A stretch of DNA of 64,000 nt from contig MGKI01000004.1 in assembly GCA_001795615.1 (NCBI GenBank), positions 22,324 through 86,323 of the forward strand. The letters run 5' to 3'. Shown here piece by piece: positions 5,094-63,561 of this stretch (the stretch's first letter is position 1; each line of letters begins with the position of its first letter). The translations under genes and the position numbers were made by a program. The stretch is from Candidatus Yanofskybacteria bacterium RIFCSPLOWO2_01_FULL_42_49. GTDB lineage: Bacteria > Patescibacteriota > Minisyncoccia > 2-02-FULL-40-12 > GWA2-44-9. Under the pieces are notes generated by a model. That model saw only the letters and a program-made list of their open reading frames with translations. It was not told where the DNA came from and ran no database searches.

Positions 5094-5204
5094 TGTTAAA
5101 TAGTATCGTTTTTAAACTCTTTTTACAATTAAAGAACCGCATTCGCTGGATGTCCGTCGGGAGACGGACCGCGAATGCGGTTTGGACTGTTTAAGCCCTA
5201 TGGA

Positions 5205-7399: not shown

Positions 7400-7640
7400 C
7401 GCATAGTCATTGTAATCTCTCAACCCCCTTTTTCTCAATCCTCGCTTCAAGACAAGTTCTTCTCAGACACGCCTCCAGTTCCCCTGCGAGGAACCTCGGC
7501 TACTTTCGCCCGACTTTTTCTTCGGCGGTGAAACGATCATACCGCCTCTGACCATGCAAAAAGTCGGGTCTCTAGTGTCTTTGAAGAACCTGCCTTGAAG
7601 CTCGTATGTACAAAGAAAGTGGTAAAAGAGAAACAAGAGG
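7400..7640 (-). repeat. Partial copy (C) of the mosaic intergenic element family; matches the middle and 3' half of copy A
   Basis: The reverse complement of 7440-7590 aligns at about 80% to 10850-10975, including gacactagagacccgac, gggcgaaagtagccgagg and ggaggcgtgtc. Confidence 0.6.
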
Positions 7641-9606: not shown

Positions 9607-9680
9607 TGTTTTGACAAAAACAATGTATTGACATAATTTATAGCAGTATTAAGTATCCCAATTAACAAGCGGGAGGGGAA

Positions 9681-9869
9681 GTGAAATTTGACGACTTACC
9701 CAAGGAAATAAAGGAATTTAAAGACAAGTTCGGAGAACCAGAGTTGCTTCGTTTTTGGAGTCAACCGATGATTCACACTGGGGGATTCAGCCCGGCCCAA
9801 CTCTGTGAAAAAGGCGATAAAACCAAGATACAGGAAATAGTAACCCTACTGAATCACTATTTATCATAA
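9681..9869 (+). CDS. Small hypothetical protein (GTG start)
   Basis: RBS GGGAGGGG upstream; a strong terminator lies immediately downstream. Confidence 0.4.
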   Translation: MKFDDLPKEIKEFKDKFGEPELLRFWSQPMIHTGGFSPAQLCEKGDKTKIQEIVTLLNHYLS

Positions 9870-9873
9870 CAAA

Positions 9874-9895
9874 GGCGCTAAAACAGCGCCTTTTT
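9874..9895 (+). terminator. Rho-independent terminator
   Basis: GGCGCT-aaaac-AGCGCC followed by TTTTT. Confidence 0.7.
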
Positions 9896-10145
9896 AACGA
9901 ATCAATGGGTGAGCCGTTTAAGATTCGCCACCCCACCTAGTCAGCGATTGCTTTTCGGCATCACAGATATTCGCTGATTAGGTGTGGGGGTTTCTTACAG
10001 AACACTTCGACTAGCTCAGTGTAAATACTTTCGACAGCTCGACCAAGCTCACTTCAGACTAGCTCAATGTAAGCAAAAGTATAGTTATTTGACACTTCAA
10101 GTACATTATAATATCTTGTGGCAACAGCACTTTAACGAGGATAGA

Positions 10146-10583: not shown

Positions 10584-10722
10584 AAGAAAGGTAGTAAGCA
10601 ACAACTATATCAAGATGGTTCAGATTTCTAACTTAGCGGCCAATTTGGCCGTTTTTTGATGGATACGCAACGGTTTATTATCCATGTTTCGCGCGGAACA
10701 CTGGAGGAGTGTGGGATTCTTG

Positions 10723-11002
10723 CCGTCTTTGAATCACTTTGACGAATCGAGTAAAAGGATGAGGTTGATAAGGAAAGATTCCGATAATCACAGGTCGAAC
10801 GCCAAGCAAGGTAGCTTAAGACTCTAGTCATGACGAGACACTAGAGATCCAACCTTTTGCACGGTCGAGGGCAGTATAATCGTTTAACTGCCCGAGAAAA
10901 GGTTGGGCGAAAGTAGCCGAGGTCCCTCGCGGGGGAACCGGAGGCGTGTCGAGGATGGCTAGAGTCTGAAGCGAAAGATGAGGAATTGTGATGAGAAGGC
11001 GG
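10723..11002 (+). repeat. Mosaic intergenic element copy A, possibly a structured RNA
   Basis: 5' block ccgtctttgaatcactttgacgaatcgag...ggtcgaacgcc and 3' block agatgaggaattgtgatgagaagg are shared with copy B (62166-62371); the middle is shared with copy C (7400-7640, - strand). The terminal helix shows a compensatory change and G-U pairs. Confidence 0.6.
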
Positions 11003-11017
11003 TGAGGCCGAACGACA

Positions 11018-13003: not shown

Positions 13004-13204
13004 AAAAATAATCTAATCATATTCAAAAAACTTTTGCAACAAATTTAAAAGGCGCAGAGCACCCCTTTGAAAAAATGTGAAGTGTGAGTTCTGCGCCTCT
13101 TGTCCCGCCGAGGCGGAACGAAATTATTTTGCCAACAATCCACTGGTGTGTCGAACTGTCAGCTTGCCCCGACCGAAGCGTCGGGACGAAAGATCTACTT
13201 CCAT

Positions 13205-13392
13205 TATAGGTGACACGGGTGGTGACAGTCAATACAAAAATTGTGGATAACTGTGTCACCAATCCGCCAACTGGCGGAGGTGACAAGTGTCACCACTTTT
13301 TCTAGCTTTTAAGCCATTTTTACTAACAATGGTGACACCGATGTGTCACCATTTAAAATAATTGTACACAGGATGTCACTAAAATGTCACCA
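13205..13392. promoter_or_regulatory. Array of about 10 GTGACA/TGTCAC hexamers, including perfect palindromes
   Basis: ggtgacacgggtggtgaca; GGTGACAagTGTCACC; atGGTGACACcgaTGTGTCACCat; gatgtcactaaaatgtcacc. Confidence 0.55.
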
Positions 13393-13394
13393 AG

Positions 13395-17571: not shown

Positions 17572-17607
17572 TATCTAAACACCAACAAAAGAGTGAGAAG
17601 CAATTCT

Positions 17608-17683
17608 GGCCCCGTAGTAGATTTTCCAGATACCCCCGGTATTGCGCCAAAGGCGCATCTGGAAAATTCACTACGGGGCTGGC
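17608..17683 (-). promoter_or_regulatory. Long near-perfect hairpin (22-bp arms) in the pnp leader
   Basis: CCCCGTAGTAGATTTTCCAGAT...ATCTGGAAAATTCACTACGGGG, with GCGCC-aaa-GGCGC nested in the loop. Confidence 0.55.
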
Positions 17684-17837
17684 CAAAAAACTCGATTTCT
17701 ACTGCGCTACTGCACTCGAGTACTTTGGCCAATACAGCCCCATTCATAATTGGTTTTCAACTACTTTTTGTTGGTTATTAATTAACTTGGATTAAAGATA
17801 CCACGGATAATTAATAAAAACAATTCCGAGTAGCGGT

Positions 17838-17990
17838 CACGACACCCGACCCCAAGACGAACGTTCGGAGGCGGGTTCTCGGAAAAGTTTCTTGAGCGTG
17901 CTTTAGCCGCTCTAAGAATCTCTGTAGCCGAGAGAGAGCGTAAAACCCAGCAGGGTTTTGACGCGGTGAGTCGAGGGTTGGGTGTCGTGA
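17838..17990 (-). promoter_or_regulatory. Multi-hairpin structured region between the NYN gene and pnp
   Basis: Outer arms CACGACACCCGACCC / GGGTTGGGTGTCGTG enclose hairpins GAGCG..CGCTC and AAACCC..GGTTTT. Confidence 0.45.
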
Positions 17991-17993
17991 ATA

Positions 17994-58545: not shown

Positions 58546-58546
58546 C

Positions 58547-58701
58547 GCAAATCTACGAATGACGCACGAATACCACAAATAGTACACAAATAGCGCGCTA
58601 CAAATGCGCTCACATGAATATATTTGTGTGAAGCCATTCGTAGTCGGCGATTTGTAGAACATTCGTAGTATTCGTTAAGATTTGTAGATTAGTGTTATAT
58701 T
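58547..58701 (+). promoter_or_regulatory. Conserved upstream module, copy 2, separating the two VirB4 ORFs
   Basis: Same blocks as 57401-57522. Confidence 0.55.
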
Positions 58702-61745: not shown

Positions 61746-62108
61746 CTACTCTATTCTCCACTTATATTCTGGGTCAGGTACAAATGTTAGTGCAACGCCT
61801 CTTCCTCTTGCGTCATTTATGTAGACGAGCCAACCGCCAGATATCCTAAGCCTGTACATATTATGCACAAAATCTCTTTCTACTTCTTCCCACTTGCACA
61901 CTTCTATTTTTTCAGCTCTATCAGTCCTAAGCTCAGTCCCAAACATCGCAATCTCCTTGTTCAACGAACCGACTACAATCCTAGTCTTTTTTATGACTAA
62001 GTCAAGTACATTCAAAGTGGGACTTATTAAATTAAGGACAACAAGAAGCGAAACCCTTGCTTCTCTTTTCTCACCATAATGAACGAGTCTGCGAAAAAAC
62101 CCAGCCAA
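61746..62108 (-). CDS. Hypothetical protein
   Basis: 120-aa ORF directly abutting the downstream gene; no known motif. Confidence 0.4.
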   Translation of the reverse strand: MAGFFRRLVHYGEKREARVSLLVVLNLISPTLNVLDLVIKKTRIVVGSLNKEIAMFGTELRTDRAEKIEVCKWEEVERDFVHNMYRLRISGGWLVYINDARGRGVALTFVPDPEYKWRIE

Positions 62109-62113
62109 AACAA

Positions 62114-62371
62114 GACACTAGAGACCCGGCCTAACTATTTAAACACTCCCCTAAGCGAGGCCCTACCGTCTTCGAATCACTTTGACGAATCGAGGAAGAG
62201 GACAAGGTTGGTATGAATGGATTCCAATAATCATAGGTCGAACGCCGAGCAGCGAGTCCTTGCGAGCGTAGCGAGGAGGCAAGCGAGGGTTACCTGTGAT
62301 TATTGGCTAAATCCATACATATCATACCGAGTCCGATGACAAGATGAGGAACCGTGATGAGAAGACACGGT
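62114..62371 (+). repeat. Mosaic intergenic element copy B, possibly a structured RNA
   Basis: gacactagagacccgg, then the 5' block ccgtcttcgaatcactttgacgaatcgag, a long imperfect helix ggtatgaatggattccaataatcataggt / acctgtgattattgg..aatccatacatatcatacc, and the 3' block agatgaggaaccgtgatgagaagacacgg. The terminal helix GUCUUC/GAAGAC is shared with copy A. Confidence 0.6.
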
Positions 62372-62386
62372 AAAGCCGAGCGAAAC

Positions 62387-62872
62387 CTATGGGTACGGCT
62401 TAATTATCACCCTTCTCTGCGGTTCTGCTCCAATGCTTTCTGTTGCTATATCGGGGCAAGCCGCAAGTTCCATATGAACGATTCTTCTCTCGTATGCAGA
62501 CATAGGGAACAATGCTTCGGCTTTTTGAGTATTTCTAACTCTCGTTACGGCTTGCTTGGCAACATCAACAAGATAATCTGCCCGCGATTTTCTATAATCG
62601 TTTATATCAAGAACGATTGTTCCTTCTTTGCCGTCTTTTACAAGCATAGCCCTTAGGACATGTTCCAGCGCTTTAAGATTTTGGCCGTTTTTACCTATCA
62701 AAAATCTGGCGTCATTGGGCGTTTGGATTGAAACAACAACGGCGTTTTCTTTCCGATCGTCACTAGATTCTTCCTTCGCCTCAATCTGGCAGTCGATATT
62801 CATAAAACTGGCCATCTTCTTAACGGTAGCTTCTACTTCTTCTTTATTTAATTTTTTGTTCGTTTCGTTCAC
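62387..62872 (-). CDS. jag: RNA-binding protein KhpB/Jag (KH + R3H)
   Basis: C-terminal R3H (SAYERRIVHMELA), KH domain; follows yidC. Confidence 0.85.
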   Translation of the reverse strand: MNETNKKLNKEEVEATVKKMASFMNIDCQIEAKEESSDDRKENAVVVSIQTPNDARFLIGKNGQNLKALEHVLRAMLVKDGKEGTIVLDINDYRKSRADYLVDVAKQAVTRVRNTQKAEALFPMSAYERRIVHMELAACPDIATESIGAEPQRRVIIKPYP

Positions 62873-63561
62873 TTTTTTCGTTTAATATATCCCTGTTCAA
62901 ACATCGAAAATACAGTCGTTGTCACCCAATACAAGATAAGACCAGCTGGCAGATTCCAACCAATAACTATAATCATAATTGGGAAAAAATACAACATTTG
63001 CTTGCTTAAAGCAGCCATTTCCTTGTTTCCACCGCCATCTGCTTGCAGCGCCATGCTCTGCTTTGATTGAATAAATTGAAGCCCGCCAGCAACCAAAGTT
63101 AAGAGGCGGCTTCTTGTTGTAATATCAAAAAGCCCCAGGAAATTATGGTGAACAATCTCCGGCGTAGAGACAAAACCATAGAGAAGATTCAAGCTTTCAG
63201 GGGTAATCCCCTTAATAAACACCTGATACAAAGCTATAAGTATCGGCAACTGTATCAATAGAGGCAGACATCCTGCCAAAGGATTAACATTATTTTCTTT
63301 GTAAAGTTTCATGATAGCGGCTGACTGCGCGGCTTTGTCATTCTTAAATTTTGCTTTCACTTCTTCAATCTTAGGAGACAGCTCTTTCATTGATTGTTGT
63401 GACTTGATGGTCTTCAACGACAAAGGAGAGAACAACGCTCTTATAAGCACTGTGAGAATAATAATTGTTAAACCTAAATCGCCACCGGGGATTACGCCTT
63501 GAAGATAGACCATAGCGTTAAACAGGGGACGATATAGAATTTCATTGTAGATAGAGAACAT
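62869..63561 (-). CDS. yidC: Membrane protein insertase YidC (short form)
   Basis: 230 aa, 5 TM, YidC/Oxa1 core. Confidence 0.9.
   Translation of the reverse strand: MFSIYNEILYRPLFNAMVYLQGVIPGGDLGLTIIILTVLIRALFSPLSLKTIKSQQSMKELSPKIEEVKAKFKNDKAAQSAAIMKLYKENNVNPLAGCLPLLIQLPILIALYQVFIKGITPESLNLLYGFVSTPEIVHHNFLGLFDITTRSRLLTLVAGGLQFIQSKQSMALQADGGGNKEMAALSKQMLYFFPIMIIVIGWNLPAGLILYWVTTTVFSMFEQGYIKRKK

Follow-up and report, generated by a model that had tools for sequence, protein, structure and literature searches.

What is the long hairpin that occupies the spacer after jag in Candidatus Yanofskybacteria bacterium RIFCSPLOWO2_01_FULL_42_49? The locus lies in a stretch of 64,000 nucleotides of contig MGKI01000004.1 (assembly GCA_001795615.1), hereafter the window. 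An initial annotation had described it as copy B of a repeat (62114-62371) that folds into a ~30-bp rod, with a second copy, A, elsewhere in the window and a possible small RNA (sRNA) role near the rnpA operon and the replication origin. Our analysis suggests, with a confidence somewhat better than even, that copy B belongs to a mosaic, multicopy family of rod-forming intergenic elements (215-300 nt) that is restricted to its lineage and whose + form is structurally constrained. The family was seen in three Candidatus Yanofskybacteria genomes from aquifer metagenomes and on one unplaced metagenome contig. Its members adjoin jag, comM, yraN and a permease gene, with occupied sites in the window, L020, L025 and L038 (L-numbers denote the related loci or contigs compared with the window; ~335 kb of related sequence was searched in all). 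Two types were distinguished: B-type rods (B, L020, the chimeric copy A and a decayed L025 copy) and Y-type rods.

The hairpin of copy B was confirmed. In the minimum free energy (MFE) fold a rod of 29 pairs (7+7+15, with one U·G pair and two bulges on the 3' arm) is closed by a terminal helix of 62155-62209 with 62329-62381, which gives the long bulged hairpin that had been predicted. Its arms had been placed at 62213-62241 and 62293-62333, positions that are off by 1-5 nt: the 5' arm ggtatgaatggattccaataatcataggt spans 62210-62238, three bases further left, and the 3' arm acctgtgattattggctaaatccatacatatcatacc spans 62292-62328. The loop between them, described as GC-rich and ~50 nt long, measures 53 nt (62239-62291) at 66% GC. 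RNAfold gave -101.1 kcal/mol for the + strand (237 nt; z = -9.7), and 0 of 200 shuffles were as good. The parts of the element are as follows, with the shell strands as paired in the MFE fold.

62150-62386 (+): intact B-type rod, the downstream part of the composite copy B locus
62155-62209 (+): 5' strand of the closing helix (shell), GC..GGC..UACCGUCUUC GA AUCAC UUU GA C GA AUC GA G GA A GA GGAC AA GG
62210-62238 (+): 5' rod arm, conserved in L020, partnerless in copy A, partly deleted in L025 and L014
62239-62291 (+): apex module, CGAAC-GCC-GA-[stem]-GAG-GA-GGC-AAGCGAGGGUU, GC-rich and kink-turn (K-turn)-like
62292-62328 (+): 3' rod arm with the bulges CUA and ACAUA
62329-62386 (+): 3' strand of the shell, GA GUCC GA U GA C AA GAU GA G GA A CC GUGAU GA GAAGAC AC GGU AAAGCC GAGCGAAAC

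The shell carries the most distinctive feature of the element. Its inner blocks read CUUC GA AUCAC UUU GA C GA AUC GA G GA A GA GGAC AA GG on the 5' strand and CC GA GUCC GA U GA C AA GAU GA G GA A CC GUGAU GA GAAG on the 3' strand. All interruptions of the copy B shell in the MFE fold are symmetric 2x2 loops, seven of which put 5'-GA-3' opposite 5'-GA-3'. Dinucleotide shuffles of copy B (n = 200) contained no such GA/GA loop in 167 cases, one in 30 and two in 3. The corresponding counts in the MFE folds of other elements were 6 (L020), 5 (copy A), 4 (L028 Y-type) and 2 (L025 Y-type), and the reverse strands of the elements gave 0. When the 5' shell arm was compared with the reverse complement of the 3' arm, ~58% of positions matched; the mismatches were all whole dinucleotide blocks, GA standing against UC in 6 of 8. 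A palindrome in DNA that decayed at random would not leave such a dinucleotide pattern. The six-pair box CGAAUC/GAUGAG is present twice in the shell of copy B. By a loose count of diagonal clusters of GA motifs, a noisy measure, copy B ranked first (6 vs. at most 4 in shuffles); a strict chain detector missed it because GA/AA loops break the array. The GA-rich stretches of 13-19 nt on both shell strands could form either open bubbles or tandem G·A stacks. The 5' block of the shell is common to copies B, A, L020, L025 and L014, and the 3' strand in copy B stops 0-3 nt from the jag stop codon.

The + strand is the better folder, the - strand of copy B giving -81.5 kcal/mol (z = -6.0). In the + (B) orientation the folds of all six intact elements were more stable by 13-34 kcal/mol, an effect due in large part to the nearest-neighbour bonus that tandem G·A mismatches receive and their UC/UC complements do not. 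With DNA parameters a slight + preference was also obtained for copy B (-41.5 for + vs. -35.8 for -). Taken together, the family-wide MFE asymmetry and the GA/GA mismatches point to an active form that is single-stranded, of + polarity and most likely RNA.

Comparative evidence for the structure came mainly from three Y-type rods, which are ~215 nt long.

L028, 10482-10702 (-): Y-type rod of 220 nt, -116 kcal/mol, z -7.5
L025, 11696-11909 (+): Y-type rod upstream of yraN and co-oriented with it
L038, 9758-9972 (+): Y-type rod upstream of yraN and co-oriented with it

RNAalifold of these rods (~76% identity) predicted 77 pairs, among which 19 show compensatory double changes. The Y-type rods carry the shell box on opposite strands (GAUGAGC/GCGAAUC). 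A covariance model built from the three aligned copy B over its full length and on the + strand only (62157-62382, 13.4 bits, E 0.0014, filters off); across 13 sources, copy A was the only other full-length match outside the training set (10.5 bits, E 2.7). The spacer upstream of yraN in L039 scored 1 bit against the same model and was not counted as a member. We conclude from the model that B-type rods are diverged paralogues of Y-type rods. Compensatory changes conserve the closing shell, as judged from the Y-type elements, and not the ~30-bp rod. For that rod the covariation expected from the initial annotation was not found: it is near-invariant in B and L020, its 3' arm is lost in A, and its 5' arm is partly lost in L025 and L014.

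The Y-type rods are also the better candidates, compared with copy B, for a genuine RNA gene. Their position upstream of yraN is kept in three genomes, and copy C occupies the same position in the window. A weak TTGTCA-16-CATTAT site was called upstream of the L025 Y-type rod; a TATAAT nearer to the rod can be read by eye and was not called by the scan. A separate TATAAT for yraN, after the Y-type rod, was likewise read by eye in L025 and L038 and not called by the consensus scans. The L028 rod (assembly GCA_001794145.1), alone among the relatives whose jag region was compared, stands after jag in the same antisense orientation as copy B. Its only common features with the B locus are the AGCGAAACCCTTGCTTCTCTTTTCTCAC block and the 3' end GAGCGA, which lies 3 nt from the jag stop codon in both.

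The suspicion that modules had been shuffled between copies held up, shell, rod, apex and GACAC modules all being exchanged among A, B, C, L014, L025 and L028. The metagenome scan returned the window's own sequence (L026) and two related copies, L020 and L025. The L020 rod is intact, 88% identical to copy B and preceded by a Y-type 5' block. The B-type copy of L025 (12366-12600, -) is ~90% identical to B in parts and is decayed: 8 shell or rod pairs are broken, no GA/GA loop appears in the MFE fold (-63 kcal/mol), and another hairpin replaces part of the 5' rod arm. Contigs L014 and L015 have identical Jag and end within the repeat, where an L025-type 5' half is joined to a B-type 3' half; they are assembly chimeras or recombinants. 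Two further copies lie in the window.

10714-11014 (+): copy A, a chimera; the outer shell half and the 5' rod arm are kept, the 3' arm and the apex are replaced
7417-7640 (-): copy C, upstream of yraN (7386-7012, -); Y-type outer helix formed by 7640-7619 with 7436-7417

The part that copy A shares with B is 85% identical over 86 nt (BLAST and alignment), and its interior is a new stem with a 114-nt GACAC module (10837-10950). The outer helix of copy C encloses a covarying stem and a GACAC module (7579-7466), and the MFE of copy C is -96.7 on the - strand of the window vs. -73.1 on its reverse. The two GACAC modules, 10837-10950 (+) and 7579-7466 (-), are 85% identical, with at least three compensatory pair changes identified by eye. 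The module has the order GACAC-UAGAGA-[11-bp stem + 6-bp stem]-CGAAAGUAGCC-GA-[hairpin]-GGA-GGC-GUGUC, rides on covarying stems within two different shells and gave no Rfam match. A template/variable pair of a diversity-generating retroelement was considered for copies A and B and rejected: their differences in the alignment are not adenine-specific.

The motif gacactagagacccgg was found at 62114-62129 exactly as annotated, and a second copy with one mismatch is present at 7564-7579 (-; chance expectation 0.03). In copy A the motif does lie downstream of the 5' block, as had been observed (gacactagagatcc at 10837, the shared 5' block at 10723-10808). From this difference in order the initial annotation proposed a circular-permutation-like rearrangement. 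Circular permutation of a single element was rejected, since gacactagagacccgg is the 5' end of the separate 114-nt module, of which B keeps a 17-nt stump. Two remnants precede the intact rod.

62047-62074 (+): remnant 5' block of a Y/C-type element, AGCGAAACCCTTGCTTCTCTTTTCTCAC; local hairpin and U-tract, no 3' partner here
62112-62130 (+): stump of the GACAC module, aagacactagagacccgg; 17/17 match to 7581-7565 (-) in copy C

The remainder of the GACAC module is missing from copy B. The AGCGAAACCCTTGCTTCTCTTTTCTCAC block is identical or nearly so at the 5' end of the L028 and L025 Y-type rods and upstream of the L020 rod, and copy C carries a diverged version. In L028 and L025 it pairs with the 3' end, GUGAGAAAAGAG(U/A)AGC, the partner at the L028 3' end being GUGAGAAAAGAGUAGC. 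A terminator-like hairpin was called at 62044-62064. The B locus is composite, with a truncated Y/C-type element (62047-62130; the 5' block, a few homologous bases and the stump) followed by the intact rod.

The apex of copy B has an order that is K-turn-like on inspection. The segments GCC (62244-46), GA (62247-48), GAG (62273-75), GA (62276-77) and GGC (62278-80) would correspond to the non-canonical (NC) stem GCC/GGC, the G·A and A·G pairs, the 3-nt bulge and the canonical (C) stem. B, L020 and L025 share the conserved arrangement CGAAC-GCC-GA-[stem]-GAG-GA-GGC-AAG-N-GAGGGUU, and the motif is also present in L028 (10835-10910), inverted relative to jag. The inner stems differ: GC/GC with an insertion in B (GCC-GA-GC...GC-GAG-GA-GGC), AC-GAUA-GU in L020 and L025 (GCC-GA-AC-GAUA-GU-GAG-GA-GGC), and GCCCC.../...GGGGC in L028 (GCC-CA-GCCCC...GGGGC-UGG-GA-GGC). 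A similar arrangement, GCC-GA-[hairpin]-GGA-GGC, is found inside the GACAC module. The apex resembles K-turns and tandem sheared G·A motifs, which are binding sites of the L7Ae family, in its NC stem, its G·A/A·G pairs, its GAG or UGG bulge and its covarying C stem. Unlike K-turns, the shell has its GA pairs in symmetric 2x2 loops that lack the 3-nt bulge. No L7Ae-family gene was found among the scanned open reading frames (ORFs) of the window (~20 of 61). The shell strands hold GUGAUGA, AGAUGA and CGAUGA, which resemble the C/D-box motifs RUGAUGA/CUGA and for that reason give weak matches to C/D-box sRNAs (sR33, 13.8 bits vs. a threshold of 37; sR14, 11.9 vs. 38). Membership in that class was rejected: the host is bacterial and no guide architecture is present.

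These features can be combined into a working model. Each element is a long hairpin closed by pairing of its two ends, the resulting shell consisting of Watson-Crick pairs broken by symmetric tandem G·A/A·G loops, and its interior is exchangeable: a rod with a K-turn-like apex in B and L020, the GACAC module in A and C, and another apex in the Y-type elements. The GA boxes and the K-turn-like apex would probably form a protein-binding platform, with the shell acting as a clamp that presents the variable modules. Copies would spread, swap parts and decay through recombination between copies, a process that would explain why chimeric, stump-like and decayed copies occur and why assemblies break here. 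A broader proposal, which we hold to be unlikely, is that the GA-laced rods constitute a class of modular protein-scaffold RNAs in bacteria of the candidate phyla radiation (CPR), in which the GA-box clamp recruits a dedicated RNA-binding protein and presents an exchangeable cargo (K-turn apex, GACAC module or Y-type apex). If this were true, the class would be analogous in function to Y RNA and 6S RNA yet unrelated to them, and the flux in copy number would point to an arms-race or a regulatory role.

Several other explanations were weighed against that of a structurally constrained repeat family. The elements could be a family of trans-acting rod-shaped sRNAs of the 6S RNA, Ro-associated Y RNA or CsrB kind, in which the purine loops are open bubbles or GGA-type sites titrating RNA polymerase or an RNA-binding protein and the extra copies are paralogues. 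Ends that pair into a long interrupted rod (215-240 nt), a strongly covarying shell, and a Y-type copy whose position and orientation relative to yraN, upstream and before a separate TATAAT, are kept in three genomes would all suit such a family; GAGGA/AGGAG motifs are also frequent, and L028 contains a sub-threshold rsmX match (20.8 bits, E 0.13). We nevertheless regard it as distinctly unlikely. Permissive Rfam searches returned no 6S, Y RNA or Csr/Rsm family to E = 0.1, truncated, chimeric and decayed copies with presence/absence at orthologous loci would be unusual for a housekeeping sRNA, the interior is wholly replaced in copies A and C, and the + strand of copy B is without promoter evidence. 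Alternatively, the - strand could be the functional one, as a cis element co-transcribed with rnpA-yidD-yidC-jag, a 3'-end structure that might stabilise the mRNA, act as roadblock or terminator, or insulate the gene that follows, in the manner of REP or ERIC. The copies of B, L020 and L025 are antisense to co-directional genes, so that read-through transcripts would carry the - version; this strand folds well in its own right (energies above), 6 of the 8 pairs broken on the + strand of the L025 copy would be G·U on the other, and the gene beyond the spacer has its own promoter-like site (62005-61978, -). On that strand, however, the seven GA/GA loops become UC/UC and earn no energy bonus, and purine-purine oppositions would not be expected under selection on it. 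The fold advantage of + in all six intact elements, the lack of a U-tract after the rod on the - strand, and the placement of copy C and the Y-type copies upstream of yraN, which are sense to the downstream gene and so no 3' untranslated region, make this explanation quite improbable.

The remaining alternative places the function in DNA, as a non-autonomous mobile element resembling a miniature inverted-repeat transposable element (MITE) or PATE, or as a recombination site whose single-stranded DNA hairpin is read by a transposase or recombinase encoded elsewhere. Much of the distribution fits, since the copies are numerous at unrelated loci, show presence/absence polymorphism and nesting, and leave stumps. 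B, the L025 copy and the Y-type rod of L028 each have direct repeats of the type AGCGA(A/G) close to either end, which might be target-site duplications; L020 and A lack them. The + preference persists with DNA parameters, and a second element with perfect 18-nt inverted repeats adjoins the L028 copy. The structure fits poorly: with arms only ~58% complementary and dinucleotide mismatches, 6 of 8 of them GA opposite GA, the ends are not terminal inverted repeats complementary as DNA, and the outer helix covaries between copies and has no fixed terminal sequence. No transposase was found among the scanned ORFs of the window (~20 of 61), the only recombinase seen being a XerC/D-like integrase 43 kb away, and the phage, plasmid and viral collections contained no related sequence. 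Among the explanations considered here we give this one the lowest probability.

Our preferred interpretation, that of a mosaic family with a constrained + form, has points against it as well. When 185,579 species genomes were scanned for exact matches to the 19-mer ATCACTTTGACGAATCGAG, only 5 chance matches came back, and the copy number and phylogenetic range given here are those seen in the ~335 kb of related sequence that could be searched. The B-type copies resemble one another too closely for a test of covariation, which counted 2 compensatory pairs, a number that 64 of 500 shuffles also attained. The count of G·U against A·C pairs is ambiguous as to strand, B and L020 favouring + and the L025 copy, through the six pairs mentioned above, favouring the other strand. 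Scans of the + strand of copy B for sigma-70 consensus promoters and intrinsic terminators were empty. The RNAfold MFE of copy B pairs the apex region differently from the K-turn reading, and we infer both the K-turn and the protein-binding role from sequence alone.

The searches for known families were negative in their respective scopes. At the gathering threshold, Rfam 15 found 7 tRNAs only in the whole window, and ARAGORN, run for tRNA and tmRNA, returned only 7 ordinary tRNAs, elsewhere in the window. Permissive Rfam searches of the B, A, C, L025 and L028 elements gave best scores of at most 24 bits against thresholds of 37-100, and 6S RNA (RF00013) gave no match at E <= 10. For a phage or plasmid origin, blastn was empty against 50,697 phage and 72,556 plasmid records, and four pattern scans of viral-contig collections found nothing related. 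Literature searches on structured RNAs of CPR bacteria, on rods with tandem G·A pairs, on 6S RNA of Patescibacteria and on Yanofskybacteria gave nothing relevant. No conserved ORF pointed to a protein-coding role when L020 was compared with copy B; a 40-aa ORF (62217-62339) was rejected as a gene, its frame being broken in L020 by 16-nt and 1-nt deletions.

ERIC/IRU in enterobacteria, pneumococcal BOX, REP/BIME and Correia elements are interspersed structured intergenic repeats of bacteria. Of the known systems compared, these are the ones that the present elements behave most like: they resemble them as intergenic, multicopy, non-coding, imperfect palindromes that form stable rods, are modular or mosaic, vary in presence/absence and disrupt assemblies (a comparison with general knowledge). 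They are much longer than REP, and they differ from all four in arms that are no simple inverted repeats, the ordered tandem G·A array, the K-turn-like apex, a shell that covaries between subfamilies, the handful of copies seen so far and the CPR host with its streamlined genome. 6S RNA and the bacterial Y RNAs (YrlA) share with the element a ~200-nt rod, a 5'/3' closing stem and regularly interrupted helices, a likeness of overall rod shape only; the element has a closing stem and an apical stem. Y RNAs, to which the element may be likened, bind protein through the stem and carry a variable module in the distal part. Unlike 6S and Y RNAs, the element shows no evident large asymmetric central bubble, its copies are multiple, chimeric and decayed (three in 64 kb, including a chimera, besides stumps), and its locus is not conserved. 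CPR genomes are small and tightly packed, yet here spacers of 250-450 nt are given to structured, fast-recombining elements. If transcribed, these would be an uncatalogued structured RNA family with an unusually dense tandem G·A array and a K-turn-like motif, well suited to studies of how non-canonical pairs give long RNA rods their form and of which proteins read them. In practice, the repeats break metagenome assemblies and make chimeric contigs (L014, L015).

The position of copy B was examined in relation to the replication origin. Jag/KhpB (62387-62872, -) and YidC (62869-63561, -) lie beside it, and the longer source contig contains YidD, RnpA, RpmH, dnaA and dnaN, in agreement with the annotated jag-yidC-yidD-rnpA neighbourhood. 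The suggestion that dnaA lies just beyond the window proved right, dnaA and dnaN being found ~2-5 kb further on, past RpmH. The claim that this is a typical spot for an origin- or rnpA-linked sRNA did not stand. In relatives with 75-83% identical Jag, the spacer between jag and the convergent gene that follows is 24 nt (L033), 113 nt (L034), 65 nt (L035), 24 nt (L036) or 22 nt (L037); that of L030 measures 181 nt and lacks the element, and that of L031 consists of 423 nt of unrelated sequence. The idea of an sRNA kept in synteny with the rnpA operon or oriC was rejected on these seven relatives, all without the element after jag, and other copies stand at comM, yraN and the permease gene. Copy B is not tied to the replication origin, and its nearness to rnpA and dnaA is no evidence for an origin-linked sRNA. 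As to orientation, B, L020 and the B-type copy of L025 are antisense to their flanking genes, and copy C and the Y-type rods upstream of yraN are sense. On the far side of the spacer, the 120-aa ORF 61746-62108 (-) is probably over-extended: in other assemblies the product has 66 aa and starts at ATG 61946, behind the ribosome-binding site GGAGA. With that start the jag spacer is 61947-62386, or 440 nt.

Other repeats were noted beside the family members. In L028, perfect 18-nt inverted repeats CTATCGCAATTTTATCAC (10720-10993) flank ~230 bp with an inverted apex module; this stretch has the look of another element, MITE-like and nested next to the Y-type rod, and one CTATCGCAATTTTATCAC copy also follows jag in L030 (10520-10546). 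Downstream of comM a palindrome GTT(T/C)CGCGCGGAAC is present in the window (10686-10699), L038 (6160-6736) and L039 (6979-7282), and in diverged form in L040 (8199-8603). Between the comM stop codon and this palindrome, the window (copy A), L038 and L039 each have a different long rod-forming insert.

Further spacers of the window also fold stably. That at 13004-13394 contains 8 copies of GGTGACA/TGTCACC (14 in the whole window, ~8 expected) in nested palindromes and reaches -148 kcal/mol on the - strand (z -8.1); it may represent an operator array or a different family of repeats. The spacers at 17572-17993, 9607-9983, 58546-58701 and 5094-5204 have very stable folds (z -6 to -10), none of them GA-laced. 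One of these structures, a ~150-nt rod, GUCACGACACCCGACCCC.../...GGGUUGGGUGUCGUGA, lies between the genes for polynucleotide phosphorylase (PNPase) and an NYN-domain protein. Finally, L037 (12477-16049) encodes a VirB4/TraG-like ATPase of an adjacent type IV secretion-like cluster that carries an intein with a LAGLIDADG endonuclease and is 1190 aa long vs. 582 aa in the window.

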